Positions 4,521-19,850 of a DNA stretch of 64,000 bases are shown in pieces. A program made the translations under genes and the position numbers. Location of the stretch: the NCBI GenBank assembly GCA_051531975.1, contig JAOPTT010000005.1, positions 352,001-416,000 on the forward strand, read 5' to 3'. The number at the start of each line of letters is the position of its first letter. Position 1 is the stretch's first letter. The notes beneath the pieces are model-generated. The model saw nothing but the letters and a program-made list of their open reading frames with translations. It made no database searches and was not told the origin of the DNA. The DNA comes from Spirochaetaceae bacterium (lineage in GTDB: Bacteria; Spirochaetota; Spirochaetia; DSM-2461).

Positions 4521-6331
4521 TTCTCCGTCCTTAATAAAAATTCGTTATATATTTTTTGATTTAGAGACCTAACAACATTGGTATCTATCTTCTGAACTTT
4601 CCTGTCATAACTAAAATAACCATTTGACTCAATTTCAACATCTGTTAACTGGGTATAAACCGCTACAGACAGGCCATTTTTTATTTTTGGTATTAACTGA
4701 TCCTCTATTAAATTAATATAAGCTTTCTCAAGACTGTTTTTATCTTTAAAAGATTTATATCCATACTTTTTATTTTCATTCCACATATGTCCTGGGACAT
4801 TTAGGTTATACCCCCCATATTCAGAAAGAAAGTATATTCTATCCTCTCTCTTTTTTTTGTTTTTAAGAGCAAAAGTGTAAGTATGAATACTAGAAAAATC
4901 TCCAACCCCTTGATCTATCCAACCAGATGCGTGGTCAATTAATCTTGTTGGGTCTTTAGCACCTATTTCTTTTGTAATTCGTACAGAATCATATTGTCCC
5001 CAGGCCTCGTTAAATGGAACCCATATAATTATGGATGGGTGGTTATGCAGATGTTCCATCATAGAATGTAGTTCGTTTTCAAAATCTTCTCTGGACTCTT
5101 TAGTATTACGTAGGGTTCTTTTATGTGCCTTTTTTGTAGAGTCATTAAATTTTACTCCAGCTATTATACTTGCAAAAAGAATTGGATTTTTAGTCCATTC
5201 ACTTCCTCCAGAAACAGCATCCTGAATCACTAACAGACCTAACCTATCCGCATGGTAATACCATCTTCTAGGCTCAATTTTTATATGTTTTCTAGTCATG
5301 TTAAAACCAAGCTCTATAGTTTTTTCTATATCAAAAAGAATTGCCTCTTCACATAATGGGGTCATTCCTGATTCTGGCCAATACCCCTGATCTAATGGTC
5401 CATGTAGAAAAATTGGTTTGTTGTTCAGCAGTACTCTCTTATGTCCATTTTTACAAATCTCACTTGAAATTTTACGCATTCCAAAATAACTATCTACAAA
5501 ATCAGGGGAACTTTTATTTGAGATAATCTCGATTTTAATTCCATATAAAATAGGCGTTTGTGGGGACCATAATTTATAGTCTTCAAAAGGCAATTTATAC
5601 ATTGTATTAGATTTGCATTCAGTTGTTTTTATAGTTTTATCACCTTCTGTAATAGTTACCCTTAACTTGGTATCTATTATTGTGGTAGTTGTTAATTCAA
5701 CTAAGTTTGTGTCTATATTGGGGGTTATTTTAATTGAAATAATACTGTTATCGACTGGTATGGGTTCAAGCCAAACCGTTTGCCAAATTCCACTTGTCGC
5801 CTCATAATAAATCCCAGTAGGATTAAGTACCTGTTTCCCACGTTGCTGAAACCCATTATCTGTACTATCTTCTACGGCTAAGATTATCTGGTTGTCTTTT
5901 GAATTTAACTTATCTGTAATATCAAAACAAAAAGGAATATATCCACCTTTATGCTCCCCAACCTTTACACCATTTACATAACAGATACAAAACCAGTCCA
6001 CAGCTTCAAAATTAAGAACTATTTTCTCCCCACTCCAGGACTCTGGTACTGTCACAGACCTTCTATACCATAGGGATTGCCCAGGTTTTAGAGGCTTAGT
6101 TACACCAGAGAGTTCTGTCTCTATTGCAAACGGTACTAATATATCACCTTCCCAATTAATTCCATCTTTCAAAGATATATTATTAATAGTTTTATCTATA
6201 ACAGCGTAATCCCAGATCCCATTTAAGTTTAGCCACCTATCTCTTAAAAGTTCAGGTCTAGGGTACTCATTTAATGGAAGTTCTCTATTTATAGTTTTAC
6301 TCCATGGTGTATTTAAATGTCTAGGTTTCAT
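4517..6331 (-). CDS. Glycoside hydrolase family 2
   Basis: YPRP-LNGIWDY, LNFEAVD, HKGGY, SGIWQTVWLE, LDQGYWP, RKHIK; acid/base PFNEAWGQ and nucleophile SEYGG. Confidence 0.92.
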   Translation of the reverse strand: MKPRHLNTPWSKTINRELPLNEYPRPELLRDRWLNLNGIWDYAVIDKTINNISLKDGINWEGDILVPFAIETELSGVTKPLKPGQSLWYRRSVTVPESWSGEKIVLNFEAVDWFCICYVNGVKVGEHKGGYIPFCFDITDKLNSKDNQIILAVEDSTDNGFQQRGKQVLNPTGIYYEATSGIWQTVWLEPIPVDNSIISIKITPNIDTNLVELTTTTIIDTKLRVTITEGDKTIKTTECKSNTMYKLPFEDYKLWSPQTPILYGIKIEIISNKSSPDFVDSYFGMRKISSEICKNGHKRVLLNNKPIFLHGPLDQGYWPESGMTPLCEEAILFDIEKTIELGFNMTRKHIKIEPRRWYYHADRLGLLVIQDAVSGGSEWTKNPILFASIIAGVKFNDSTKKAHKRTLRNTKESREDFENELHSMMEHLHNHPSIIIWVPFNEAWGQYDSVRITKEIGAKDPTRLIDHASGWIDQGVGDFSSIHTYTFALKNKKKREDRIYFLSEYGGYNLNVPGHMWNENKKYGYKSFKDKNSLEKAYINLIEDQLIPKIKNGLSVAVYTQLTDVEIESNGYFSYDRKVQKIDTNVVRSLNQKIYNEFLLRTEK

Positions 6332-6360
6332 TATATCCTCTTTGGTTTATGTTTTGTTAA

Positions 6361-6390
6361 AGTATATTATCACAAATATATAGTTGTCAA
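6361..6390 (-). promoter_or_regulatory. Putative sigma70 promoter of the GH2 operon
   Basis: TTGACA (6390-6385), 18-nt spacer, TATACT (6366-6361); GAGGA SD before ATG 6331. Confidence 0.55.
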
Positions 6391-6449
6391 ACAAAATCAG
6401 CTGTATTTACTTGGATTATATTACTTCCGCTTTTAGTAAACTAAATTGC

Positions 6450-6478
6450 TTGTTTCAATATATTAGACATGTTATAAT
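6450..6478 (+). promoter_or_regulatory. Putative extended -10 promoter for a leaderless regulator mRNA
   Basis: TTGTTT-17-TATAAT with TGn extension; the -10 ends at 6478, ATG is at 6485, no SD. Confidence 0.55.
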
Positions 6479-6484
6479 TAAAAT

Positions 6485-7387
6485 ATGAAAGATTTAGAGG
6501 TTCCCCCGTCCAATTTTAGAAAAGTAGCCAAAGCTCTAGCTGGTGAGATTAGAATTCAAATTTTAGAACTACTTACAAATGAGCAAAAAAACTTAAACGA
6601 GATAGCAACAGCTATAGATATACCCCTATCTACAGCTACAGTGAATGTACAAAAACTAGAGGATGCTGGTCTTATTTCTGCAAAACTTGAACCTGGGAAA
6701 AGGGGAACACAAAAAATTTGTTCACTAAATTTTAATAAAGTTATTTTTGATATTGGTAACAAACAGAATATGGTTCCATTTAAAGAAATAAGTATTCCAG
6801 TTGGACATTTTTCAAATGCAAAAGTTACACCTCCATGTGGTATCTGCACCGATATCCATAGGCTAGGTAAAGTTAACGATTTTAGATCCTACTACCTTCC
6901 TGAAAGGTTAAAAGCCCAACTAATTTGGTTTAATACTGGTTTTTTAGAGTATAATTTTCCTAAAAGTGAAGATATAGACCCTATAGAATCTTTAGAGATA
7001 ATTATGGAGATCTGTTCTGAGGTTCCATATTATAATAACAGTGCTAAATCTGATATCTCAGTATGGATAAATGATATTGATTTAGGTTTTTGGAGATCAC
7101 CTGGTGATTTCGGTGGTAAAAAAGGTCGTCTAACTCCTAAGTGGTGGGGTATACATAAGACACAGTACGGCTTATTAGTAACCTGGAAAATAACCAATAA
7201 TGGAACCTATTGTAATAATAATCTTGTATCTGAAGTTTGTCTAAAACATCTGCAACTAGGGGACAATGCTTTTATATCTGTTAAGATTGGTGTTAAAGAG
7301 GATGCTAAATATGCTAGGGGAATTAACCTCTTTGGTCAGAAATTTGGAAATCATCCTACAGATATTGTAATGAGATTTAATATATAA
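6485..7387 (+). CDS. ArsR-type HTH regulator with large C-terminal domain (COG4189-like, found beside sugar-utilisation genes)
   Basis: N-terminal wHTH (KALA..RIQILELL..LEDAGLI..GKRGTQKIC); conserved C-terminal W.SPGDFG...G.LTPKWW, QYGLL, GINLFG..FGN. Confidence 0.8.
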   Translation: MKDLEVPPSNFRKVAKALAGEIRIQILELLTNEQKNLNEIATAIDIPLSTATVNVQKLEDAGLISAKLEPGKRGTQKICSLNFNKVIFDIGNKQNMVPFKEISIPVGHFSNAKVTPPCGICTDIHRLGKVNDFRSYYLPERLKAQLIWFNTGFLEYNFPKSEDIDPIESLEIIMEICSEVPYYNNSAKSDISVWINDIDLGFWRSPGDFGGKKGRLTPKWWGIHKTQYGLLVTWKITNNGTYCNNNLVSEVCLKHLQLGDNAFISVKIGVKEDAKYARGINLFGQKFGNHPTDIVMRFNI

Positions 7388-7486
7388 AAAGATTCTTCAT
7401 ATATTCCTCTGTTTTTTGTTGACCTTAATGCAATCATGCCATAATATTCTTTCGGAACAAATTTTATTCATAAATAGAGGTTGTAT

Positions 7487-8530
7487 ATGCGAATTGAATC
7501 AGAAATTAAATTAGGTTTTAAAGATGTTATGTTTAGACCAAAAAGATCTACATTAAAAAGTAGAAGTCAGGTTGAATTAGTGAGAACATATAACTTTAGA
7601 AATGCAGACAATGGTAATGTCACATGGTCAGGTATTCCAGTAGTTGCTGCAAATATGGATACAGTTGGAACTTTTGAAATGGCAACAGCTATTAGTAAAC
7701 AGAAATTATTAACTGCTGTACATAAACACTATAGCCAAGAAGAGTGGAAAACATATCTAGATAAGTGTGATACACCTGAATATATTATGATTAGTACAGG
7801 AACAAGTGAACACGACTATACTAAACTGGTTAATATAGTAAATGAAAATCCAAAAATTACAATGATCTGTATTGATGTAGCAAATGGTTACTCTGAGCAC
7901 TTTGTAGCATTTGTTAAAAAAGTAAGAAATCAATTTCCAACTAAAGTTATTACAGCTGGTAATGTTGTAACAGGGGAGATGGTCGAAGAACTTATATTAG
8001 CCGGAGCAGATATTATTAAGGTTGGAATAGGACCTGGTTCAGTTTGTACTACACGGGTAAAAACAGGTGTTGGTTATCCACAAATTTCCGCAATTATTGA
8101 GTGTGCAGATGCTGCCCATGGTCTTGGTGGACATATTATTGCAGATGGTGGTTGTACATGTCCTGGAGATGTATCTAAAGCTTTTGGTGCTGGTGCAGAT
8201 TTTGTAATGTTAGGTGGAATGTTATCTGGTCACAAAGAGAGTGGTGGAGAAGTTACAGAACGAGATGGCCAAAAATATGTGAGTTTTTATGGAATGAGTA
8301 GTAAAGTGGCTATGGATAAACATGCTGGTGGAGTTGCTAATTATAGAGCTTCTGAAGGCAAAGCCGTTGAAGTTAAATATAGAGGTCCTGTAGACAATAC
8401 TCTTAACGATATATTAGGTGGAGTTAGATCTACATGTACTTATGTTGGTGCCGCAACTTTAAAAGAGTTAACTAAAAGAACTACATTTATTCGAGTTCAG
8501 GAACAAGAAAACCAAGTTTTTAACGGGTAA
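7487..8530 (+). CDS. guaC: GMP reductase (type 1, long form)
   Basis: [35 protein letters not shown], catalytic [27 protein letters not shown] 7487 fits the GAGG SD better than TTG 7481. Promoter TTGACC-17-TAATAT at 7419-7447. Confidence 0.97.
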
Positions 8531-8634: not shown

Positions 8635-8973
8635 ATGTCAAAAAAAATACCTTTACTTTTTACTTTATATTTTCTCTTTTTATGGGGTGGTCAACTCTCA
8701 TCTGGAAAGGCATCTTTAGAACCTAATATTGTCAATTTATATCTGATTCCTCTCTATATATGTTTTTTTTCAAGGGCAATAATTTGGTTCATTATTTTAA
8801 AAAAAATGGATTTAATAAAAGCTTATACAATATCTAGTATTAACTATCTGATAATGCCATTACTCTCTTTTTTAGTTTTTGGGGAACTTTTTAAACCTAA
8901 ACATTTTATTGGTGGTTCTATAATAATTATAGGGATCTGGATTTACAAAATGGGGGAGAAAAAAACAGTATGA
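8635..8973 (+). CDS. SMR/EamA small membrane protein, ArnE/ArnF-like flippase subunit
   Basis: 112 aa, 4 TM; pattern W..ILKKMDL.KAY..SS.NY...S.LVFGE...GG.II..GI. Confidence 0.7.
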   Translation: MSKKIPLLFTLYFLFLWGGQLSSGKASLEPNIVNLYLIPLYICFFSRAIIWFIILKKMDLIKAYTISSINYLIMPLLSFLVFGELFKPKHFIGGSIIIIGIWIYKMGEKKTV

Positions 8974-9290
8974 CGTTAATCTATATGTTAATAATGTGCA
9001 TTTTAACCTCAAGTGGCCAGATTCTAGTAAAAAAAGGGATAAACAAGGGTAATAAAAGATATTATCTTGAGCCATATATCATAACCGGGGGATTATTAAT
9101 AGTTATCGCTCCAATGTTATACCTGAAAGTTCTAAGTAGAATTGGGCTTACTAATGCATACGGTTTAAATGGCTTAAGTTACCTTATTATATACTTTATG
9201 AGTATCGTCTTTTTGAAAGAGAAAGGCAGTGTTTTGCAAACTGTAGGAATTATTTGTATAACTATAGGGGTTCTTATTTGGTCGATCTAA
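8970..9290 (+). CDS. SMR/EamA small membrane protein, second flippase subunit
   Basis: 106 aa, 4 TM; SSGQILVKKG, AYGLNGLSY, FLKEK; ATGA overlap with the previous gene. Confidence 0.72.
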   Translation: MTLIYMLIMCILTSSGQILVKKGINKGNKRYYLEPYIITGGLLIVIAPMLYLKVLSRIGLTNAYGLNGLSYLIIYFMSIVFLKEKGSVLQTVGIICITIGVLIWSI

Positions 9291-10009
9291 CTATAATAAT
9301 CCCAGTGTATAATGGGTTGCAAAATATTGAACCACTTTTAAAAGAGTTAGTTCCAAAACTTGAAACTTTAAATAAAAATTGGAATATTCTTTTTATAGAT
9401 GACCATAGCACAGATAATGCCTTTGATTTTCTAATAGAGCAAAATTTTTTAGATTCAAGAATTTCTTGTATAAGATTAAAAGACAATAGGGGACAACAAA
9501 ATGCAGTTTTTTGTGGATTAGTTCAGTCAAAAGGCAGACATGTGATCACAATGGATGATGATCTTCAACACCCTATAAAAACAGTAGATAACTTATTAGA
9601 AAAAATAGAAGAGGGGTATGACCTGGTTTATGCTGTTAATAGAAGCTCTGATAGGAGACTTTCTCTAAGATTTGGTTCATGGATAAATGGCCTATTTTTC
9701 ACTTTTTTTTTAAAAAAACCATATAAAATTGAAATAGGTAGCTATCGCATATTTACAAGGGAATTAATAGATGAGATAAAAGTTTGTGATAATAGATTTA
9801 TATATGTCTCCGCACTTATATTTTCAAAAGTTAAAGATCCTAAGATTTTTTCTTTAACTTATACCCCAACTATTACAGGTAGTAAAATTAGTAGAATTAA
9901 TTTTAAAAGTAGATTGAAGTTATTCATTATGTTATTCAAAAATTACGGTCCCTTAAAGCGCTTTTTAAAAGTGATTGGTGAACCTTTTGAAATAGAGAAG
10001 GTTATATGA
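9278..10009 (+). CDS. GT2 polyprenyl-phosphate glycosyltransferase (ArnC/GtrB/DPM1-like)
   Basis: IIIPVYN, IDDHSTD, NRGQQNAV..GL, ITMDDDLQHP, GYDLVY. TTG 9278 behind AGGGG chosen over TTG 9254. Lacks the two long C-terminal TM helices of ArnC/GtrB. Confidence 0.85.
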   Translation: MVDLTIIIPVYNGLQNIEPLLKELVPKLETLNKNWNILFIDDHSTDNAFDFLIEQNFLDSRISCIRLKDNRGQQNAVFCGLVQSKGRHVITMDDDLQHPIKTVDNLLEKIEEGYDLVYAVNRSSDRRLSLRFGSWINGLFFTFFLKKPYKIEIGSYRIFTRELIDEIKVCDNRFIYVSALIFSKVKDPKIFSLTYTPTITGSKISRINFKSRLKLFIMLFKNYGPLKRFLKVIGEPFEIEKVI

Positions 10010-11253
10010 TTTTACATATGTTAGGTGGCGGGCCAGCCCAAGTTAGTGTTATTAAAAGATCAAAACAGAAGGGATTTAAAGTAATTGTTTCAGATCTAGA
10101 CCCTAAAGCTCCCGGGTTTGATTTTTCAGATTATAACTCTTTAGCCAGTACTTTTGATGGTGAGGCTGTTTTTAAAGATGCTAAAAGGTACAGATCTTCA
10201 TTTTTAATGACTACAGGAACAGATCAACCAGTTTTAACAGCTGCTAGAGTTTCAAAACAGTTAAATTTACCATATTTCCTTACACCAGATCAGGCTCTAA
10301 TTGTTACAAATAAAAAAACTATGAAAACTAAGATGGTGGATTGTGGTATACCAACTATGCCATTTGTACTTTTATATAAGGATTTTAAGGACAACGAATT
10401 AGATCCCCTGACCTTTCCTTTAGTTATAAAACCATTAGATAGCCAGGGGCAAAGAGGCATTTTAAAGGTATATTCGATAGAAGAAATACGTGATAATTTT
10501 GAAACAGTTCTTAGCTTTTCAAGGGAAGATCAGATCTTAGCCGAGGAGTATTATGAATCAGAGGAAATTACTGTAAGTGGATGGGTAGAAGATGGGAAAG
10601 CCATAACATTTATAATTACTGACAGAGTTACAATAGATAATGGACCACATCTAGGAGTCTGTATTTCTCACCGTTATCCATCTCTATTTCATGATAAAGA
10701 GGAAAAAATAAATAGTTTAGTGCAATCCATTACAGATATGATCGGTTTAAAATCAGGACCTATATATTTCCAAATACTTGCAGGGGATAAAGGTTTTATT
10801 GTAAATGAGATAGCTTGCAGATTAGGTGGAGCATACGAAGATGAATTTATACCAGCGATGTGCGGTATTCCACTAATGGATATTATGATTGAAATAACAG
10901 CTGGAATTAAATATAATCTATTAGAACAGAATCAAATAAACAATAATTTAAAAGGTAAAATTTTATCACTTCAGATGTTTTTTTCTAGACCAGGGATTCT
11001 ACACAAATTAGATGGTATGGATAAAATTCTAACTATAGATGGAGTTTTAAATGGTAGTTTTCTTCTAAAAAAAGGAACTGTTATAGGTTCTAGAGAAAAC
11101 TCTACACAACGGGTTGGATATTTTATTGTTATATCTTCAACTAAGGCTGAAGTAAACAGAATAATTTTAGAAGTTTATGATTCTCTTATTCTAGAAAATG
11201 AATCAGGTGATTCAATGTTACAAATTAATGAAAGGATGTTATTTCCAATATGA
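10006..11253 (+). CDS. ATP-grasp domain ligase of the type found in surface-glycan clusters
   Basis: LGGGPAQ...VIVSD Rossmann-like start, TNKKTMK, PLVIKPLDSQGQRGI, AEEYY, VNEIACRLGG. Confidence 0.85.
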   Translation: MILHMLGGGPAQVSVIKRSKQKGFKVIVSDLDPKAPGFDFSDYNSLASTFDGEAVFKDAKRYRSSFLMTTGTDQPVLTAARVSKQLNLPYFLTPDQALIVTNKKTMKTKMVDCGIPTMPFVLLYKDFKDNELDPLTFPLVIKPLDSQGQRGILKVYSIEEIRDNFETVLSFSREDQILAEEYYESEEITVSGWVEDGKAITFIITDRVTIDNGPHLGVCISHRYPSLFHDKEEKINSLVQSITDMIGLKSGPIYFQILAGDKGFIVNEIACRLGGAYEDEFIPAMCGIPLMDIMIEITAGIKYNLLEQNQINNNLKGKILSLQMFFSRPGILHKLDGMDKILTIDGVLNGSFLLKKGTVIGSRENSTQRVGYFIVISSTKAEVNRIILEVYDSLILENESGDSMLQINERMLFPI

Positions 11254-12182
11254 AAAAAATTATTATGTTACTATTAGCTATAAGTTTGCTTCTAATGGGT
11301 TCATGTTCAAAAAACTATGGAGAAGATAAAACCATTAGCGTAGCAGTACAATATGGACTTGCATATTCACCTCTACACATAATGAAAGAAAAAGGCTTTT
11401 TAGAAGAGTTAAGACCAGATGTAGAAGTTAAATGGTTAAAACTTGGAAATACTGCTTCAATTAGAGAAGCTATGTTATCAGGGGATTTAGATGCAGGATT
11501 TATGGGAATACCTCCTTTTTTAATTGGTAGGGATAAAGGTATGGAATGGAAAATAGCTACTGGATTATCTAGTTCACCATTAGGGTTAGTAATTCCTGTT
11601 GGTTCTTATTCGTCACTATCTGATTTTGATAAAAACTCTAAAATTGCGTTACCACAACCAGGAAGTATACAGCATATACTATTATCAATGGCAGCAGAAA
11701 AGCAGCTTGGAAATGCAACAATACTAGATAACAATTTAATTGCACTTAAACATCCAGATGGGTTAAACGCTCTACTATCTGGTTCTGTTAATGCTCATTT
11801 TACTTCTCCTCCATATCTTTTTAAAGAAGCTGATAATAAGGACTTTGAAATCCTAATAACAGGGGATGATGCAATGGGAGAACCTTTCACTTTTATAGTA
11901 GGGGTTGTTACAGAGAAGTTTAAAAAAGATAATCCTGGTTTATATAAGGATTACCTAAAGGCTTTAGACAAATCTATGGATTTTATTAGTAATAATCAAA
12001 AGGAATCAGTAGAGATCTTAGCAGAAGCTTTCTCTATGGAACCCGATCTGTTAAAAGAGTATTTATATCGACCTGGGATGTTATTTAATAACTCTGTTAA
12101 AGGGCTTGATCGTTTTATATCATTTATGACCACAGAGGGATATTTAAAAAATGAATTAACATCGGAAAGTATTAGCTTTTGA
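11250..12182 (+). CDS. ABC transporter substrate-binding lipoprotein, NitT/TauT (SsuA/TauA-like) family
   Basis: Lipobox LMGSC; REAMLSGDLDAGFMG, IALPQPGSIQH, HFTSPPY. Confidence 0.85.
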   Translation: MKKIIMLLLAISLLLMGSCSKNYGEDKTISVAVQYGLAYSPLHIMKEKGFLEELRPDVEVKWLKLGNTASIREAMLSGDLDAGFMGIPPFLIGRDKGMEWKIATGLSSSPLGLVIPVGSYSSLSDFDKNSKIALPQPGSIQHILLSMAAEKQLGNATILDNNLIALKHPDGLNALLSGSVNAHFTSPPYLFKEADNKDFEILITGDDAMGEPFTFIVGVVTEKFKKDNPGLYKDYLKALDKSMDFISNNQKESVEILAEAFSMEPDLLKEYLYRPGMLFNNSVKGLDRFISFMTTEGYLKNELTSESISF

Positions 12183-12949
12183 AACTGCTAAAATATTGGT
12201 GGTTATTATTAATAATACTACTCTGGCAAATAATATACTCACTTAATTTAGTGCCAGCTTTAGTATTCCCATCATTAACAGAGATAGTTTATGTACTCTA
12301 TTCAGATATTGTTTCAGGGGTTTTAATAAAAGCAGTTTTATTCTCTCTCTTAGTAATTATATGTGCATTTATTCCATCTATGTTTTTAGGTTTTGTAATG
12401 GCATTTTTATCATATCGTTTTAAATCCGTAGATAAGGTCACAGAAAAATTATCATCTATAGCACATCCTCTACCTGGTATAGCCCTATTGCCACTTCTAA
12501 TAATTTGGACAGGTCTTGGAATACATGTAATTGTTTTAATTGTAATACACTCAGTTTTGTGGCCGTTTTATGTAAATATTCGAAGTGGTTTTAATCAGGT
12601 ACCCCAGTTATGGATAGATTTGGGACGTAATAATAGAATAAATAAAAGGGATGAGTTTTTACATATTTTATTACCTGCAGCTTTCCCAAGTATTCTCTCC
12701 GGTCTGAAAATAGCCTGGGCTAGGGCTTGGAGAGCTGTAATAAGCGCAGAGATGATCTACGGAACAATTGGTGGTGCTGGAGGTCTTGGTTGGTTTATTT
12801 ATAATAAACGTATTTTTATGGATACTCCAGGACTGTACGGTGGGATATTCTTGTTAATGATTATAGGTCTTTTAGTTGAGAAAGTTTTTTTTAGTAAACT
12901 TGAGAGGAAAACAAACCTATACTGGGGAGATTCTAATGGATCTAATTAA
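12179..12949 (+). CDS. ABC transporter permease, NitT/TauT family
   Basis: 6 TM; HPLPGIALLPL, LPAAFPSILSGLKIAWARAWRAVISAEM, GGLGW. Confidence 0.9.
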   Translation: MKLLKYWWLLLIILLWQIIYSLNLVPALVFPSLTEIVYVLYSDIVSGVLIKAVLFSLLVIICAFIPSMFLGFVMAFLSYRFKSVDKVTEKLSSIAHPLPGIALLPLLIIWTGLGIHVIVLIVIHSVLWPFYVNIRSGFNQVPQLWIDLGRNNRINKRDEFLHILLPAAFPSILSGLKIAWARAWRAVISAEMIYGTIGGAGGLGWFIYNKRIFMDTPGLYGGIFLLMIIGLLVEKVFFSKLERKTNLYWGDSNGSN

Positions 12950-13736
12950 TGTTAAAAAAATATCATTCTCTTATATAAAAGATAATACAAAGTACCAGAT
13001 ATTTAAAGATTTTGACTTAAATTTAAAAAGGGGTTCATTTACAACAATTTTAGGGCCATCTGGCTGTGGAAAGAGTACACTTTTAGGTCTACTTTCAGGC
13101 TTTAAGAGACCAGATACTGGAGAAATACTTTTTAATGGAAATAAAATCGACTCTCCATTTCCCGAGGGGCAAGTTATATTTCAAGATACTGGACAGTTAT
13201 TACCTTGGCTTACTGTTAAAAAAAACATCATGTTTCCCAGGTATAGAAATAGTTTGTTAAGTAAAAAAAACAGACTAACAGAGAGTGATTTTAACCTATT
13301 AAATAACCTATTAGAATCTACTGGGTTATTAGAATATGAGGAGTATCATCCAAATCAGTTATCCGGTGGACTAAAACAGAGAGTATCACTGGTGAGGTCA
13401 ATTTTTGCAAAGTCAGAAATCATATTTATGGATGAACCATTTGTTAGTTTAGATGCTCCTTCTAGGTTTGAACTACAGAAGTTATTATTAAAATTGTGGA
13501 AATCCCAGGGAAAAACTGTCCTGTTTGTGACTCATGATATTTCAGAAGCACTACTGTTATCCGATCAGATTTTAATATTTTCCGGGGATAATAAAAGCAT
13601 AGATTTGGTAGATAATAAAATTAACAGACCTCGAAATAGAGATGATCAGGAATTTATTGATGAAAAATTACGAATTTACTCTTTAATAGATAGTATCGGT
13701 AACTCCGATACTATCGGAGTTACCGATACAATCTGA
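12936..13736 (+). CDS. ABC transporter ATP-binding protein, NitT/TauT family
   Basis: Walker A GPSGCGKS, LLPWLTV, LSGGLKQR, MDEPF, FVTHD; ATG 12936 follows a GGAG SD. Confidence 0.92.
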   Translation: MDLINVKKISFSYIKDNTKYQIFKDFDLNLKRGSFTTILGPSGCGKSTLLGLLSGFKRPDTGEILFNGNKIDSPFPEGQVIFQDTGQLLPWLTVKKNIMFPRYRNSLLSKKNRLTESDFNLLNNLLESTGLLEYEEYHPNQLSGGLKQRVSLVRSIFAKSEIIFMDEPFVSLDAPSRFELQKLLLKLWKSQGKTVLFVTHDISEALLLSDQILIFSGDNKSIDLVDNKINRPRNRDDQEFIDEKLRIYSLIDSIGNSDTIGVTDTI

Positions 13737-15253
13737 TCTACTCTGTATATTTTTACATTCCACTGCTTTAAATACCTTAAAGCAACGATACGATTACCAT
13801 ATCCAGGACTATTAAATTGATTTATTAATTCACAGTTATTCTCTATAAAAGTATTAAGTCTAGGAAACCAATCCGATGTATTACCATATAATACATTCCA
13901 ATAAGGTCTATTTTTGTAAATATAATATAGCTCATCTGGGATTATAATATATTCAATGTCTCTATCAGTTATATATTTCCTAAGGGTTAAATTATTTTCT
14001 TTTAAATAATGAAGGTTTCTCCAGTCATAAATATTCCCATCGGCAAATCCATAATCGTTAATAATTCCACATAGAACATTGGAATCTGAGGGAATGATTT
14101 TTGTAATTTGATTAAGATAACTATGATAACTCTCTTTTTCTCTGTTTATCTCTATAATAGAAAAAAACAGAGTTAAGAAAAGTAGGGGAGTCATAAATAG
14201 TAATTTAAACTTTTTACTTTCTATTAATATATCTATAAATATGGCGACTGAAATATAGTAAAATGGTGTTAACAACCCTATCGATGGCTGACTATATTTT
14301 CCAATAATAAATAGTCCAATATTAAACCCAAAAAAACCAATAATACTTATTATATTCCTCCTTTTTAAGATTGGAAAAAGTAGGAATATAGGGAACAGTA
14401 ACATTTGCATTTTAATATTTGGATTGTGATATGTTCCACTAATCTGATTAAATATTTTACTATAAAAATTAGGTAACTTTAATAGTTTAACATCGGTTGT
14501 ATCTAATACTCCTAATGGTTTTCCATATGTTAAATAATCTTGTATAAAATTTGGATTAAAACTAAAACTTAAAGCTACAAAAATAGATGTCATAAAAAGA
14601 GTCGAGAATATAAAAATAACTCCTTCAGATAGTTGTCTACGACCTCTAAATATTTCTATTAAAAAGTAGAGTCCAATAGGCCAAGCTATAATAAAACTAT
14701 TTGGATGGAAGCCAACAGATAGTCCTAAAATTAAACCTGTTAATAATCCTCTCTGTTTAGGTTTTATAGATCTGTTTAATAGTATATTTAACATTAATAA
14801 TGTAAAAAAAATTAAGAATATTTCTTGTCTACCTAAGTGTGATAAGTATAAAAATAGTGTATCTACCGAGCAGATAACCATAACAAAGAGTGCTATTAAA
14901 GACTTTTTATCTGTTTTGAATACTTTTAATATAACTTTATATAGTAGAAGTAAGCAGAATATTCCTGTTACAAGAGACAAAAGTCTAATAGTAAAAATAG
15001 AGTAAGAAAATATTTTAATAAAACTTATTTGTAATAGATGGAATAAAGTTTTTATTCCATGGGGATGTCGTTCATATAAGTCAAAAAAATCTTCAGTACT
15101 GTTTACTGAATTATTAGAGATCATTGATCTGCTTAAACCACTTAACCACGGTTCATCTGAATGAACAGATGGATACCTAGTTAAAAAAAGTAAATTTATT
15201 ACAAACCATAGTGGAAGATAGACATAAACTAGATAATGTACTTTGATTTTCAT
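13676..15253 (-). CDS. GT-C fold polyprenyl-phosphate-sugar transferase (ArnT/PMT-like)
   Basis: DE motif in the first external loop (HSDEPWL), RLLSL, GRQE, FHPN; about 12 TM plus a soluble C-terminal domain. Confidence 0.8.
   Translation of the reverse strand: MKIKVHYLVYVYLPLWFVINLLFLTRYPSVHSDEPWLSGLSRSMISNNSVNSTEDFFDLYERHPHGIKTLFHLLQISFIKIFSYSIFTIRLLSLVTGIFCLLLLYKVILKVFKTDKKSLIALFVMVICSVDTLFLYLSHLGRQEIFLIFFTLLMLNILLNRSIKPKQRGLLTGLILGLSVGFHPNSFIIAWPIGLYFLIEIFRGRRQLSEGVIFIFSTLFMTSIFVALSFSFNPNFIQDYLTYGKPLGVLDTTDVKLLKLPNFYSKIFNQISGTYHNPNIKMQMLLFPIFLLFPILKRRNIISIIGFFGFNIGLFIIGKYSQPSIGLLTPFYYISVAIFIDILIESKKFKLLFMTPLLFLTLFFSIIEINREKESYHSYLNQITKIIPSDSNVLCGIINDYGFADGNIYDWRNLHYLKENNLTLRKYITDRDIEYIIIPDELYYIYKNRPYWNVLYGNTSDWFPRLNTFIENNCELINQFNSPGYGNRIVALRYLKQWNVKIYRVDQIVSVTPIVSELPILSIKE
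13688..13734. repeat. Palindrome with perfect 18-bp arms and a 1-nt centre, inside a convergent gene overlap
   Basis: GTATCGGTAACTCCGATA (13693-13710), C, TATCGGAGTTACCGATAC (13712-13729); extends to 23 bp with one mismatch. Confidence 0.95.
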
Positions 15254-15264
15254 GTTGATAAGTA

Positions 15265-15298
15265 TATTAGTTGCTCTAACTTAATAGAGCAACTAATA
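15265..15298 (-). terminator. Hairpin closing the sulfur-transfer operon
   Basis: Perfect 14-bp arms TATTAGTTGCTCTA/TAGAGCAACTAATA, 6-nt loop, immediately after the stop at 15302. Confidence 0.7.
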
Positions 15299-15301
15299 AT
15301 A

Positions 15302-16180
15302 TTAAATTGTTGGTAAACCTTCGTTTGACCAACCAGAAGTTCCTGTTCCAGGAGTTCCCATACCACTTTTAACAGATACTGCGTCGTATCCAAGTAGTCT
15401 TAATATACCTACAGTCTGACCTGCAGTTTGACCAGAATAACAGTAAACATATACTTTTTTATCTTTTGGAAGATCAGTGAAGTTTACTTGCATTCCAGCA
15501 CCAAAAGGAATGTTAATTGCACTTTCAATGTGTGATTCAGCATAAGCATCAGGTTTTCTGATTGAAACAATAGCCATATCTTCGTCTGCGTCTAACATCT
15601 CTTTAAGTTTTGCAGCTGCAATTATGTTGCTACCAGTTTCAGGGATAGCATTAAAGTAAGCTTCTACAGCAGCTTTAACATCAGCATCGTATGAAACACC
15701 AGATGCATCAGGACTCATATTCATATCAAGTTCTGTGTAAGATTGGTAACCTTCTGTTTTAGCAATACCAAGTTTCCAACCATACTTAATAGATTGTGCC
15801 TGGATTCCAGCTACATTAAGAGCCGCAACTGCTTGACCAGCAGTTTGACCTGAGTAACAATTTACATAAACTGGTTTATCGTCTGGTAACCACTCAAGTG
15901 CTTTAGCAATTGCAGGTCCCCAAGGAGCATTTACAGCGCCTTTTAAGTGTCCTGCATCGTAATCTACAGACTTTCTGATATCAAGGATTAAGAAGTCTTT
16001 TTTAGCATCCATTGCTTCAAATACTTTAGCCGCAGGAATTATTCTTGCTCCAGGGTAATCTGCAAAGTAATCATTAGCTGCATCTTGTACAGCACTCGAT
16101 GTTACCTCTTTTTGTCCTTCTGCTACTAACACCATAGTTGTTAGTGATAGAATCATAAGTAGTGTAATGATTTTTTTCAT
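15302..16180 (-). CDS. Exported tandem rhodanese-domain sulfurtransferase
   Basis: Signal peptide ending VAEGQKE; two domains, each with (D/S)IRK..Y..(G/S)H..A.N.P and the active loop CYSGQTAG. Confidence 0.88.
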   Translation of the reverse strand: MKKIITLLMILSLTTMVLVAEGQKEVTSSAVQDAANDYFADYPGARIIPAAKVFEAMDAKKDFLILDIRKSVDYDAGHLKGAVNAPWGPAIAKALEWLPDDKPVYVNCYSGQTAGQAVAALNVAGIQAQSIKYGWKLGIAKTEGYQSYTELDMNMSPDASGVSYDADVKAAVEAYFNAIPETGSNIIAAAKLKEMLDADEDMAIVSIRKPDAYAESHIESAINIPFGAGMQVNFTDLPKDKKVYVYCYSGQTAGQTVGILRLLGYDAVSVKSGMGTPGTGTSGWSNEGLPTI

Positions 16181-16202
16181 ATATTGTCTCCTTTTAAAAT
16201 AA

Positions 16203-17105
16203 TTATGAATTATCTTGTTGTGTAATTGTTACGGCAACTTCTGTTTCCGGAACATATACTGGCATTTTATCTTTTGTCCACTGAAGCCATGCTCCATCGT
16301 AGATTTTTAAATTTCTGTAACCGGCATTATATAGGGCTACATAACTGTTAGTAGCTCTTATTGAACTTTTACAAAACATAACAATGTTGTCATCTGGCAT
16401 TATGCCGTTCTCTTTGTAAAGTATTCTAATTTGTTGTACCGATCTAAATGAAAAGTCGTTAAATAGATTGTCTTCATGATTAATATGTATTGATCCAGGA
16501 ATTGTTCCTGCACTAAACTCATCATCAGATCTTACATCTATCAATTTAAAATTATCATCTGGATTATCAATCATAGATTCAACGGTGTTTGTAGTAGTTA
16601 TAGAGTCTTTATTAAACCTAGTTGTTTTATATTTTGTAATTTTAACTAGCTCTACTTTTTTAGAAACTTCTAAACCAGCATCTTTTAACTCTGTTAAACC
16701 ACCTGCAACAATAAGAATGTCACCTGTATGTCCATAGTTTTTAAGTGTCCAAAACAGTCTAGATGAATCCATGTTTTTATTATCATCATAGATAATGATA
16801 TTAGTTTCAGTTGTTAATCCAATACTTCCTGCAACTTCTGATATTACAGATGCTGGTGCTACACTATTTGGAACAGGTTCTTTAATATTGATACTATTTC
16901 GTTCAATATTCAGAGCGCCAATAATATGTCCTTTCCCATAAGAAGTTGCTTTCCCAGCATCAACGAAAGTGTAACCAGCAGCTATTTTTTTTATTGCAGT
17001 TTTTGCATTAATAATAACCCCATCTGATTCATCATACTTAGTAAAAGAGCAGGATATTATTAATAAAATAACTGAAGCTATAATAACTATTTTTTTTAAG
17101 TTCAT
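16203..17105 (-). CDS. Two-domain thiosulfate/3-mercaptopyruvate sulfurtransferase-like lipoprotein
   Basis: Lipobox IISC; IIIYDD...SRLFWTL..YGH; DVRS..EF..GTIPGS; active site FCKSSIRA; signature YDGAWLQW. Confidence 0.88.
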   Translation of the reverse strand: MNLKKIVIIASVILLIISCSFTKYDESDGVIINAKTAIKKIAAGYTFVDAGKATSYGKGHIIGALNIERNSINIKEPVPNSVAPASVISEVAGSIGLTTETNIIIYDDNKNMDSSRLFWTLKNYGHTGDILIVAGGLTELKDAGLEVSKKVELVKITKYKTTRFNKDSITTTNTVESMIDNPDDNFKLIDVRSDDEFSAGTIPGSIHINHEDNLFNDFSFRSVQQIRILYKENGIMPDDNIVMFCKSSIRATNSYVALYNAGYRNLKIYDGAWLQWTKDKMPVYVPETEVAVTITQQDNS

Positions 17106-17115
17106 AAATGTTTCC

Positions 17116-18339
17116 TTAAGAAAAGTAGTTGATCAATGTATTATATGAAAAATCACAATCAAGAACATCAACAACTTTTTTATCTTTAATAACAACAAGA
17201 CTTGGGTGTTTATCAACTCCCAAACGATTTGCTATACCCTTAGATTTATATACATCAACCTTGGTTACATTAAATCTATCTCCAGCAATCTCTTCTACAG
17301 TATCAAGGTCAGCTAATCTACAGTGGCTATTTTGATCAGATGCATCGTAGATAAATACAACTCCATCTTTACCAAGAATCTGAGTATTATATGCCTCTGT
17401 TTCAGCTATAAAACGTTCAGCTGCAACACCTGCAATAGCACCATCGCCAACTGCTGTAGCAACTTGTTTCAGAATCTTCTCTGTTACGTCACCGATAGAA
17501 AATACACCTTCGATATTAGTCTCTTTTTGCTCATTAACTAATACATAACCTCTATCTGTAAGATCAACTTGACCCTTAAATATCTCTGTATTTGGTATGT
17601 AACCAATAAACTCAAAACATGTTGGTACTTTTATATTTATAAGTTCACTATTTTTTAGGTTTTTAAGTACAACATTTTCAAGGTGCTCTTCACCCTCAAA
17701 TTTATGAACTATTGAGTTCCAGACAAATTCCATTTTAGGATTAGCTAATGCTTCCGCTTTTGCAATTTCATTACAATCCATTTTTCCTTCATCGTGAATA
17801 ACTGAAACATAAACTTTATCAGCAAACTTTGTTAAGAACATTCCTTCTTCTATTGCAGCATCTCCACTACCAATAATAAGAACTTCTTTTCCAGAGTTAG
17901 AAGCAGCATCACAAGTTGCACAGAAGGATATTCCTTTATCAAAAAGATACTTCTCTTCATCTATTGCACCAGTAACTCTTGGTCGCCCTCCAGAGGAGAT
18001 AATTACAGATTTTGCTTTGTATGTAGTTCTAAAAGTTTCAACTGTTTTAATTTCACCTTCTAGATCTACAGATTTAACATCTGTTCCTTTAAATTTAACA
18101 CCAAAGTTTTTAGCTTGTTTCTGAAATAAATTCATTAAATCTAACCCTGTAGTCCCATCTGGGAAACCAGGATAATTTTCTATCTCATTAGTATAGGTCG
18201 CAAGACCACCTACAAGTGATTTTTCAATAATTAATGTTTTTAATCTTGCTCTACCACAGTAGATTCCAGCAGTTAAACCACCAGCACCTGCTCCAATAAT
18301 AACAACATCATATTCTTCTACTTTCTTTTCTCTAGCCAT
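17116..18339 (-). CDS. Thioredoxin reductase-family flavoprotein with a C-terminal degenerate thioredoxin-fold domain
   Basis: GAGAGG FAD motif, IENYPGF, redox CATC, GSGDAAIEEG, TNIEGVFSIGD; extra ~85-aa tail (KVDVYKSKGIANRLGV...PSLVVIKDKK) without CxxC. Confidence 0.88.
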   Translation of the reverse strand: MAREKKVEEYDVVIIGAGAGGLTAGIYCGRARLKTLIIEKSLVGGLATYTNEIENYPGFPDGTTGLDLMNLFQKQAKNFGVKFKGTDVKSVDLEGEIKTVETFRTTYKAKSVIISSGGRPRVTGAIDEEKYLFDKGISFCATCDAASNSGKEVLIIGSGDAAIEEGMFLTKFADKVYVSVIHDEGKMDCNEIAKAEALANPKMEFVWNSIVHKFEGEEHLENVVLKNLKNSELINIKVPTCFEFIGYIPNTEIFKGQVDLTDRGYVLVNEQKETNIEGVFSIGDVTEKILKQVATAVGDGAIAGVAAERFIAETEAYNTQILGKDGVVFIYDASDQNSHCRLADLDTVEEIAGDRFNVTKVDVYKSKGIANRLGVDKHPSLVVIKDKKVVDVLDCDFSYNTLINYFS

Positions 18340-18356
18340 TTATATAACCCCCAATA

Positions 18357-18890
18357 CTACATGAAAAATTTAACAAGTAATTTACTACCGATCCAGGCTC
18401 CGATAAACAAAAAGAGTCCATAAACCCATCCCGATAATGAGAAGGAAGCTATACCACTAAATAGAGCTCCGATGTTACATCCAAAACCAATTCTTGCACC
18501 ATAACCCATAAGTAAACCACCTAGGATTGCTGCAAAAATTTGTTTAGCTGATTTTATCTTTTTTATTTTGAATTGTGACGCCATCAGTGAAGCAAAAAAG
18601 GCACCAAAAATAATACCTAGGTTCCTATATGTTCCAGCGTGATTCAAAACTCCATTTTTAAGTACAGCCTGTGCACCATCTGAAGAGAAGTAGTACCACT
18701 TATCTACATTTCCACCAAATAGTTCATATAACCAAGCTCCCCAGTTCGCTAAAACTCCAGAAACACCCCAAGGATTACCGGTAGCTGCTAAAGTAAATAT
18801 CTGAAAAATAGATAGGAGTACAGCTCCAGTCAGGTAAGGCCATGCCTGTTTAAACCAAACTTTGTAATATTTATTATCTTTTAATGCCAT
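18357..18890 (-). CDS. YeeE/YedE thiosulfate transporter, C-terminal half
   Basis: PWGVSG, GGLLMGYGARIGFGCNIGALFSG sulfur-transport motif. Confidence 0.88.
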   Translation of the reverse strand: MALKDNKYYKVWFKQAWPYLTGAVLLSIFQIFTLAATGNPWGVSGVLANWGAWLYELFGGNVDKWYYFSSDGAQAVLKNGVLNHAGTYRNLGIIFGAFFASLMASQFKIKKIKSAKQIFAAILGGLLMGYGARIGFGCNIGALFSGIASFSLSGWVYGLFLFIGAWIGSKLLVKFFM

Positions 18891-18905
18891 GTTTTTATAC
18901 CTTAT

Positions 18906-19133
18906 TTACTGTTTTTCTATTATAACTTCCCACTCACCGTCATCAACTTCTTCTAATTCAACGTTATGACCCTCTTTTCTTGCCCATTCAGGAACATTTT
19001 TCATAGCACAGCTATGGTCAATTTGAATAATAAGAACATCACCTTTATCCATTTTCTCTAACGCTTTCTCAGCTTTAACTAAAGGGATTGGACAAGCTTC
19101 TCCCATACAATCTAATTCAACTTCTTTTGACAT
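18906..19133 (-). CDS. TusA/YeeD-family sulfur carrier protein
   Basis: LDCMGEACPIPL (CPxP), NVPEWA..EGH; 75 aa. Confidence 0.92.
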   Translation of the reverse strand: MSKEVELDCMGEACPIPLVKAEKALEKMDKGDVLIIQIDHSCAMKNVPEWARKEGHNVELEEVDDGEWEVIIEKQ

Positions 19134-19154
19134 AATATATCTCCTTAATGTTTT

Positions 19155-19850
19155 TTATTTTTCTTCTTGTTTATTACCTTTGTTTTCCCATTTATCTGCT
19201 GCGATAAATAGAAGTACAATTATCATAAGTTGTACAAATATTGCTCCACCCCAGCCAAAAACATCTGGGAGAAATACTGCTTTACCATTACTAATAGTAT
19301 TTAATTTCCACCAACCAAAATCGTGGGCACCCCACAGAGAACCAATTATAAAGAATAGTAGAGATAATACTTGCATGTAAAATCCTTCACCAACTCTCAT
19401 AAGTGTTCCAGAAGCACACCCTCCTGCGATTACCATACCAATTCCAAACATTAATGCACCAATTACAGTCGCAAAACTTATAGGAACGACATATGATTGA
19501 CCAGGTATTGGAAGGCCTTTAACAAATGCTCCATATTTAATAGCCCAGAAACCTATAGATGTAATTGCAAATGCAATTAATACAGCTCTAGTAACAGTTG
19601 TACTTCCAGTCATGGCTGGATCTCTTAATGATGCTGTAAAACAAAACCGTGATCTTTGTAAAATAAAACCAAATATATTACCAGTAAACCAAAATAGACT
19701 TAGTTGCTGATTTATAAACCCAGCAATTATACCAATTACAATTACCATCGCACCTAATACGATACCCATCGGGATTTGGTTCTTCTTTTTTTTCCTTGTT
19801 CTAGTCGATGACCTAGGTGACCGTCTGATTTTTGATTCGGTTTCACTCAT
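19155..19850 (-). CDS. YeeE/YedE thiosulfate transporter, N-terminal half
   Basis: FGFILQRSRFCFTASLRD and FGIGMVIAGGCASGTLMRVGEG motifs; GGAG SD. Confidence 0.9.
   Translation of the reverse strand: MSETESKIRRSPRSSTRTRKKKKNQIPMGIVLGAMVIVIGIIAGFINQQLSLFWFTGNIFGFILQRSRFCFTASLRDPAMTGSTTVTRAVLIAFAITSIGFWAIKYGAFVKGLPIPGQSYVVPISFATVIGALMFGIGMVIAGGCASGTLMRVGEGFYMQVLSLLFFIIGSLWGAHDFGWWKLNTISNGKAVFLPDVFGWGGAIFVQLMIIVLLFIAADKWENKGNKQEEK

Follow-up and report, generated by a model that had tools for sequence, protein, structure and literature searches.

Envelope sugar-transfer systems such as ArnC-ArnE/F-ArnT of the Arn (PmrHFIJKLM) pathway and GtrABC load a sugar onto undecaprenyl phosphate, turn it outward and transfer it to a surface acceptor. 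Rhodaneses are a marker of thiosulfate-reducing anaerobes (PMC5497025, PMC3035371, PMC9431562). Shale wells sour and corrode through the action of fermentative thiosulfate reducers such as Halanaerobium, whose rhodaneses are thought to initiate the process (PMC5497025). We analyzed a 64,000-nucleotide stretch of a Spirochaetaceae genome (contig JAOPTT010000005.1, positions 352,001 to 416,000; called the window) that carries an eight-gene cluster, which a preliminary description had read as an Arn-like line fed by an ATP-grasp ligase and its own importer. Judged by gene content across genomes, this sugar line is conserved and coupled to a rhodanese-YeeE-TusA sulfur relay. On the same evidence the cluster would be a polyprenol-phosphate sugar-transfer line, possibly dedicated to protein O-glycosylation of the exported rhodanese RhdB at a serine in its tail, a reading for and against which we find the case evenly balanced.

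The sugar line and its sulfur-relay neighbors

Seven of the eight genes lie on the plus strand. Two SMR/EamA halves stand first, an ArnE-like half that is likely a flippase subunit (8635..8973; PF00892 above cut-off) and an ArnF-like half (8970..9290), recognized by family scans and conserved-cluster comparison. They are followed by a GT2 polyprenol-phosphate glycosyltransferase (9278..10009; likely start TTG at 9278, alternative TTG at 9254), an ATP-grasp amide ligase of the L-amino-acid-ligase type (10006..11253) and a NitT/TauT-type ATP-binding cassette (ABC) importer. The latter comprises a substrate-binding lipoprotein (SBP; 11250..12182), placed by its NMT1-like family and predicted structure, a permease (12179..12949; PF00528, BPD_transp_1) and an ATPase (12936..13736; PF00005, ABC_tran; likely start ATG at 12936). 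The eighth gene, a PMT_2-type GT-C glycosyltransferase and candidate protein O-glycosyltransferase (13676..15253), converges on them from the minus strand. All eight open reading frames were confirmed at these positions, and the head-to-tail overlap already described held at every junction, with ATGA stop/start overlaps at 8970-8973, 10006-10009 and 11250-11253, TTGA at 12179-12182, and overlaps of 13-14 nt at the SMR2/GT2 and permease/ATPase junctions. The GT-C and ATPase genes overlap by 61 nt tail-to-tail, across a 23-bp inverted repeat (13688..13734, strand not assigned) that is likely a terminator.

The sulfur relay lies immediately upstream of the GT-C gene, also on the minus strand (15302-19850). 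A 14-bp perfect inverted repeat (15265..15298, strand not assigned) separates the GT-C gene from RhdA, an exported tandem rhodanese with Cys at both catalytic positions (C108 and C247; 15302..16180). Next stand RhdB, an MST-type rhodanese lipoprotein (16203..17105) whose C-terminal linker and Asp298-x-Ser300 tail (16206..16277) form the predicted acceptor site, and a TrxB-like flavin reductase that is extended by ~95 residues at its C-terminus (17116..18339). Family scans placed two YeeE/YedE half-genes (18357..18890 and 19155..19850) on either side of a TusA/YeeD-like sulfur carrier (18906..19133). The reductase scores 308.8 bits on TIGR01292 over residues 10-311 (cut-off 343), and the split YeeE halves and TusA all fall below the cut-offs of TsuA/TsuB-type families.

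An alignment of 30 ATP-grasp sequences retrieved 269 relatives from the genome collection; the 80 best matches, which come from Spirochaetota, Bacillota and one Calditrichota, were used. Together with one locus from a plasmid collection they gave 81 loci, all chosen by the ATP-grasp gene alone, and the system was found in spirochaetes, Halanaerobiales, monoderm Clostridia and Desulfitobacterium. Many loci are cut by contig ends, and the gene counts are therefore lower bounds. Clustering of the open reading frames placed GT2 in 77 loci (plus fusions), the permease and GT-C in 75 each and the SBP in 73; on the sulfur side RhdA was present in 60, YeeE in 53, RhdB in 49, TusA in 41, TrxB in 25 and a CoA-disulfide reductase in 23, and a LysR gene in 50. 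The association of the eight genes is far beyond chance. The SMR pair was present in 18 loci. The preliminary description had remarked on the lack of sugar-synthesis genes, which is true of this window; among the relatives a DegT-family gene occurs in 55 loci (WecE in 54 once an unrelated enzyme is removed), RmlB in 26 and RmlA in 9. The SMR pair and WecE never share a locus, a mutual exclusion that tracks a quick tree and so gives no evidence that one replaces the other.

The SBP gene directly follows the ATP-grasp gene in 72 of the 81 loci, bearing out the proposed synteny of the importer with the glycosyltransferase and ligase genes, and the coupling of GT2 to ATP-grasp is reinforced by the many GT2-ATP-grasp fusion proteins among the relatives. 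One ATP-grasp-SBP fusion (P0251) may reflect a lost stop codon. In a survey of 61 spirochaete genomes the SBP was present in 23, always with the ATP-grasp gene in the same genome and once in a decayed cluster. The ABC genes have been relocated beside TusA or TrxB in G067 and five further loci (L258, L260, L264-L266), a placement that links the importer with the sulfur genes no less than with the ligase. Five loci (L081, L099, L115, L122, L254) keep the SBP and permease genes without an ATPase gene in the locus. A decaying copy of the cluster (L134:7382-11436, genome G037) has fragmented GT-C, ATP-grasp and SMR genes and whole ABC genes; neither RhdA nor RhdB was found in that genome.

The link to the relay was followed in the same 61 genomes, with E < 1e-45 for the ATP-grasp ortholog and E < 1e-60 for RhdA. 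Each gene was found in 23 genomes, 21 of them common to both. There are four exceptions: in G020 a contig end truncates the same cluster, G016 has it beside a second sulfur module, G051 has RhdB beside GT-C, and G025 has RhdA alone. At 69 loci the gene 5' of GT-C was recorded: RhdB in 37, RhdA in 19, YeeE in four, a second ABC ATPase in four, RmlB in one and none in four, so that a gene of the sulfur modules is the neighbor in 64.

The sulfur genes themselves vary. RhdA is doubled (~590-610 residues) in L081, L100, L114, L122 and several of L249-L268. A second sulfur module, with a full-length YeeE, a CoA-disulfide reductase carrying a rhodanese domain and a TauA-like ABC importer, often joins the island (L045, L049, L059, L089, L103, L119 and others); the genome of the window keeps only the CoA-disulfide reductase of this module, standing alone on contig C2 near 211700-213400. 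A paralogous island in Bacillota (L270-L273, L275; e.g. L272:1670-18772) contains, besides a split YeeE, TusA and LysR, two or three rhodanese lipoproteins that lack the tail and an ABC importer; the SBP of this importer reaches 505 bits on NF008633 (PRK11622). The island also carries a TIGR04283/TIGR04282 'arsenosugar' transferase pair above cut-off, together with an Fe-S flavin oxidoreductase and a nucleoside-hydrolase-like gene, and by gene content it is a second case of a sulfur relay joined to sugar chemistry. A selenoprotein reading was rejected: no in-frame stop was seen in the RhdA or cluster RhdB matches checked, which in one match list were the top 35 only.

The Asp-x-Ser tail of RhdB

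All 49 full-length RhdB proteins of the 81 loci end in Asp-x-Ser followed by the stop codon. The tail is carried on a Pro/Ala/Thr/Gln-rich linker of variable length (21-99 residues, median 24). Among RhdB homologues 118 of 120 have the motif at the end, and the other two still end in Ser. For comparison, only 12 of 3964 open reading frames of at least 150 residues in the genome of the window end in Asp-x-Ser, RhdB included. The tail was present in RhdB of 21 of 22 spirochaetes, in 29 of the 30 top matches read from the order of G066 and in 10 of 10 from the order of G068, sets that overlap in part.

The motif has also changed its scaffold. Four of 63 RhdA proteins, in Desulfitobacterium/Peptococcaceae-type loci without RhdB, carry the tail on a new linker and adjoin GT-C, and the other 59 are untailed. 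Genome G283 likewise has GT-C, no RhdB match and a tail on RhdA. By these sequences the tail has moved to RhdA in two lineages.

In one genome the tail and the sugar genes are missing together. G083 keeps YeeE-TusA-YeeE-TrxB-RhdB-RhdA, and no GT-C, ATP-grasp or SBP gene was found in this genome; its RhdB lacks the motif, the sole case among the 30 top matches read. This protein (L232; L269:9602-10507) ends in Gly-Gly, which may be chance or substitute chemistry, and which we take to resemble the end of thiocarboxylate sulfur carriers. Across the order of G066 (201 genomes; RhdB ortholog at E < 1e-75), GT-C was found in 36 genomes, RhdB in 35 and both in 34. For the order of G068, scoring of 288 genomes for RhdB (13 unscored) gave 10 with the gene, and scoring of 283 for GT-C (18 unscored) gave 11. 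Only 4-11 candidates were scored per genome in these order-wide samples, and misses are therefore possible. Genomes bearing RhdB also had GT-C in 22 of 22 cases among the spirochaetes, in 34 of 35 and in 10 of 10 in the two orders. In G236, G255 and G273 the cluster is split: GT-C sits with RhdB, and WecE, GT2, ATP-grasp and the ABC genes lie elsewhere. Two control sets of rhodaneses have no tail, the distant MST proteins of spirochaetes that lack the cluster (5 of 5) and the rhodaneses of the paralogous Bacillota island (11 of 11). N-glycosylation sequons are not conserved in RhdA or the SBP; one occurs in 37 of 51 RhdB proteins, inside the rhodanese core.

The enzymes, a proposed route and competing explanations

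None of the eight proteins reaches the cut-off of a named NCBIfam model among the matches listed, and the closest named homologues are from Spirochaetaceae. The best solved relatives of the GT2 profile are ArnC (E 1e-53), GtrB (1e-42) and Dol-P-Man synthase (DPMS; 4e-34), in line with the load-flip-transfer logic suggested earlier. The enzyme is ~80 residues shorter than ArnC, the match stopping at ArnC residue 229, and D93-D94-D95 are invariant in the alignment. It scores 81.7 bits on the ArnC NCBIfam model (cut-off 529), and a match to the PgfS model reaches 78.5 (cut-off 500); the SMR halves reach ~30 bits on the ArnE and ArnF models (cut-offs 92 and 99). GT-C matches PF13231 with 36.5 bits, above the cut-off of 26.1. 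Its H31, D33 and E34 are invariant, and D33-E34 form an acidic pair in the first outer loop across 66 sequences, a pair that presumably has the catalytic role it has in PMT_2-type enzymes. The GT-C profile gave no match to ArnT or any other GT-C enzyme in the PDB at E<=1, and no ArnT match in NCBIfam.

The ATP-grasp ligase combines ATP-grasp_4 (PF13535) with LAL_C2 (PF18603). Its predicted structure (predicted local distance difference test score, pLDDT, 94.3) is closest to 4DIM and to L-amino-acid ligases, with template modeling (TM) scores of 0.70-0.79 to 3VOT, BacD and RizA; C219, H222, Q256, N267, E268 and R272 are invariant. The GT2 fusions and the WecE context argue for a sugar amine as substrate over two free L-amino acids. 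Formylation of the PurT kind, as a substitute for ArnA, was rejected, the enzyme scoring 18 bits against a PurT cut-off of 339 and PurT ranking below the amino-acid ligases. Distant ATP-grasp kin adjoin DegT-family aminotransferases in three capsule loci, and a homologue in the protein atlas bears automatic names only. In published work, TupA-like ATP-grasps are predicted to attach amino acids to surface polysaccharides (PMC13419641), and amide-linked amino acids occur on O-antigen sugars (PMC7685785). The genome of the window encodes a distant ATP-grasp paralogue (C6:111481-112584; ~28% identity, in a reading frame of at least 500 residues), and matches of similar strength occur in most spirochaete genomes searched.

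The aminotransferase of the relatives is WecE (520 bits, cut-off 375) and scores 206 bits on the ArnB model (cut-off 631). A second line in the genome of the window lies in a polysaccharide locus (contig C2, L125:6488-12253) with WecD (GNAT), WecE, GT2, an acetyltransferase, SMR and a GT-C-like membrane protein. There the acetyltransferase stands where the cluster has its ATP-grasp ligase, which we count in favor of an N-acylated amino-sugar. The predicted structure of the SBP (pLDDT 93.7) has TM scores of 0.71-0.77 to SsuA and TauA at 16-20% identity; no close solved relative was found beyond this shared fold, and the protein falls below the family cut-offs of SsuA (87 against 163.5 bits), TauA (24.8 against 304) and SaoX (30.7 against 300). 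Of six distant SBP kin (~30%), two neighbor fumarate hydratase/SDH-like genes, one a CoA-transferase/PrpD gene, one a metallophosphoesterase, and two a threonine-synthase-like gene (one with a malate/lactate/sulfolactate-type dehydrogenase), neighborhoods that hint weakly at small organic acids.

These assignments suggest a five-step route. A nucleotide 4-amino-4,6-dideoxyhexose would be made first, to judge by gene content dTDP-Fuc4N through RmlA, RmlB and WecE in most relatives. The ATP-grasp ligase would N-acylate the sugar amine with a small acid, likely taken up through the ABC importer in cells that do not synthesize it, if importer and ligase share a substrate. GT2, given its likeness to ArnC and GtrB, would load the sugar onto undecaprenyl phosphate, and the SMR pair, or a flippase encoded elsewhere, would turn the lipid-linked sugar outward. 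Finally, GT-C would move the sugar to the terminal Ser of Asp-x-Ser on the flexible rhodanese arm, as predicted from the distribution of the tail. In a bolder form, which we consider possible but doubtful, a thiol-bearing amino-sugar (e.g. cysteinyl- or mercaptoacyl-fucosamine, its acid imported by the ABC system) would be fixed on the terminal Ser. This sugar-based prosthetic group would act outside the cell as a swinging arm: as thiosulfate is reduced, it would pick up persulfide sulfur at the active site of the rhodanese and hand it on, either to the partner rhodanese or to the YeeE channel.

Published proteomics of Halanaerobium WG8 gives spectra without and with thiosulfate (PMC5497025). 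RhdB rises from 41/47/39 to 68/74/64 and RhdA from 87/97/80 to 126/136/118; ATP-grasp goes from 2/1/2 to 1/1/1, the SBP from 3/3/5 to 4/5/3, GT-C from 1/1/2 to none, and a second SBP from 57/52/49 to 70/71/61 (PMC5497025). Genes 11115 and 11116, in Table S2 a 307-residue MST-type sulfurtransferase and a 301-residue rhodanese (PMC5497025), were taken as RhdB and RhdA; the other labels follow from gene order, which the absence of the permease from both lists supports. Look-ups by sequence in sheet 2 of supplementary file 7 give wrong counts, since its sequence column appears to be displaced from the protein labels by a fixed number of rows. Within these data the sugar module is made at a low, enzyme-like level and is not induced by thiosulfate; beside abundant rhodaneses this fits modifying enzymes that serve an abundant target, not a bulk importer. 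The second sulfur module is abundant in the same proteome.

Several observations weigh against glycosylation of the RhdB tail. Intact GT-C occurs without a tailed rhodanese: none was seen in L094, L099, L101 and L113, whose GT-C keeps all 30 invariant residues, or in the GT-C genome W01 (30 loci read of 40 rhodanese matches in these genomes), none stands at the GT-C loci of G095 and G116, and G015, G016 and G024 have GT-C and gave no RhdB match. In these ~10 genomes GT-C either serves other acceptors or is a leftover; alternatively, the tail is not what it acts on. RhdB lies away from GT-C in G022 and G034, and the loss of the tail with the sugar genes was seen in one genome. The genomes are related and do not count as independent cases, for which reason Fisher tests were given no weight, and the score gaps were already known when the ortholog thresholds were chosen. 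On the side of donor synthesis, WecE is above cut-off in only four of the 61 spirochaete genomes, and the copy in the genome of the window lies in a separate locus, 37-49% identical to the cluster WecEs; no gene is therefore assigned to donor synthesis in SMR-type loci, this one included. WecE-type loci in turn carry no flippase gene, and in WG8 thiosulfate brings no increase in the proteins of the sugar module. Six genomes with sugar genes (G061-G065 and G066, the last a complete chromosome record) gave no SBP match. This last result, together with the tie to the sulfur relay and the Asp-x-Ser tail, also tells against the generic, scavenging-dependent envelope decoration of the preliminary description.

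The genomes with intact GT-C and no tailed rhodanese are what one would expect if the acylated amino-sugar went onto a membrane glycolipid or wall polymer and Asp-x-Ser were a docking motif that recruits the rhodanese to GT-C or its product; the GT2/SMR/GT-C layout is also that of lipid-modifying systems. We consider this unlikely. The invariant terminal Ser, the linker of variable length, the transfer between scaffolds and the loss with the sugar genes fit a chemical site at least as well, and lipid A is an improbable common acceptor for spirochaetes, Halanaerobiales and monoderm Clostridia. Clostridia and Desulfitobacterium are not known to have lipid A. The relocated ABC genes beside TusA or TrxB raise another explanation, in which sulfur or selenium enters a lipid-anchored or soluble sugar conjugate that is loaded outside by the rhodaneses and re-imported by the ABC system for reduction. 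The invariant Cys219 of the ligase and the paralogous island, where YeeE, TusA and rhodaneses are joined to the TIGR04282/TIGR04283 pair and an ABC importer, would agree with such a thio-sugar carrier, but it leaves the tail unexplained. An SBP that is scarce in WG8 (3-5 spectra against 80-136 for RhdA) and was not found in six genomes would also make a poor bulk shuttle, and we regard this explanation as decidedly improbable.

The position of the motif exactly at the free C-terminus suggests a different chemistry, in which the ATP-grasp ligase activates the C-terminal carboxylate of the rhodanese and couples it to the amino-sugar, so that the protein gains a GPI-like anchor or tag. ATP-grasp enzymes do act on protein C-termini, as LysX does for LysW. 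The ligase here has no signal peptide, though, while RhdB is exported as a lipoprotein; it is GT-C, not ATP-grasp, that keeps its place next to RhdB, and GT-C and the importer would be left without a role, which makes this very unlikely in our view. That two unrelated modules merely hitch-hike on one island could be argued from the sulfur operon standing alone in G083 and RhdA standing alone in G025 and G048. The link, however, has outlasted many rearrangements across two phyla, the tail goes along with the sugar genes, and we hold this to be extremely improbable.

If glycosylation of the RhdB tail is right, it would be a protein glycosylation with one dedicated site, linked to energy metabolism and not to surface camouflage, and it would give a substrate to a large uncharacterized family of ATP-grasp enzymes and to an orphan clade of NitT/TauT SBPs. 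It touches the question of how sulfane sulfur passes from an exported rhodanese into the cell and narrows it to one residue, the Ser at the end of RhdB. Should the arm carry a thiol, it would be a new class of prosthetic group, an extracellular counterpart of phosphopantetheine. Full-text searches found no description of a sugar line combined with a sulfur relay, and papers listed by related searches do not, to judge by their titles and the opening of their abstracts, deal with such a system; subscription papers, among them Ravot 2005, which reportedly concerns rdlA, and bioRxiv supplements may bear on novelty. Modification of thiosulfate-handling proteins at a tail Ser would likely be undescribed.

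Around the cluster, guaC (7481-8530, upstream) was rejected as a member of the system: it is not a conserved neighbor, and a hairpin follows it. It is preceded by what, from a reading of the open reading frames, is an unrelated sugar-catabolism block (together 1402-7387 of the window: a 615-residue membrane-anchored protein, an MFS-like transporter, a glycoside-hydrolase-like protein and a divergent regulator). A promoter scan gave 49 sites, with 46.5 expected, and is uninformative. A metatranscriptome of the same sample contains three short contigs covering RhdA, TrxB and TusA; the lack of cover elsewhere is not informative.

Comparison with known systems

The family resembles Arn in its predicted amino-sugar, the presumed N-acylation before loading, the ArnC-like GT2, the SMR pair and the GT-C enzyme. 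It differs in having WecE for ArnB and an ATP-grasp ligase for the ArnA formyltransferase, in lacking ArnD, in the shorter GT2 and a GT-C without a significant ArnT match, and in its occurrence in monoderms and its tie to rhodaneses and an importer. ArnA, ArnB and ArnD are absent from the window, and no formyltransferase or deformylase is among the conserved clusters. On these sequence comparisons the cluster is not an Arn system, and the 'Arn-like' label stands for a resemblance in working only. With GtrABC it shares a GtrB-like GT2, a flippase and a GT-C; no GtrA-family gene is among the conserved cluster genes, the sugar would be an acylated amino-sugar, and no link to O-antigen was seen.

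There is also a likeness to actinobacterial Ppm1/Pmt protein O-mannosylation and streptococcal Pgf glycosylation, in which a polyprenol-phosphate monosaccharide donor serves a PMT_2-family GT-C that acts outside. The cluster likewise has a PMT_2 GT-C with the acidic pair in its first outer loop, and its candidate target is a lipoprotein with a Ser on a Pro/Ala/Thr-rich linker. Unlike those systems, it would likely serve one dedicated C-terminal site with an acylated amino-deoxysugar, and has its own ligase and importer.

The sulfur side recalls thiosulfate uptake by YeeE(TsuA)-YeeD(TsuB) and rhodanese-dependent thiosulfate reduction in Halanaerobium, sharing YeeE, a TusA-like carrier and rhodaneses (PMC5497025, PMC9431562); strain WG8 has RhdA and RhdB among its rhodaneses, and both rise with thiosulfate (PMC5497025). 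Here YeeE is split, and the relay has its own reductase and a glycosylation module that the available passages do not mention. The comparison, by analogy, extends only to how the systems may work. The proposed arm, finally, resembles those of carrier proteins, phosphopantetheine at an Asp-Ser site and the Cys arm of SoxY, in having a conserved Ser beside Asp, or a flexible C-terminal arm, that takes a reactive group from one active site to another. This is an analogy only; here the group would be a sugar, which GT-C would add outside the cell.

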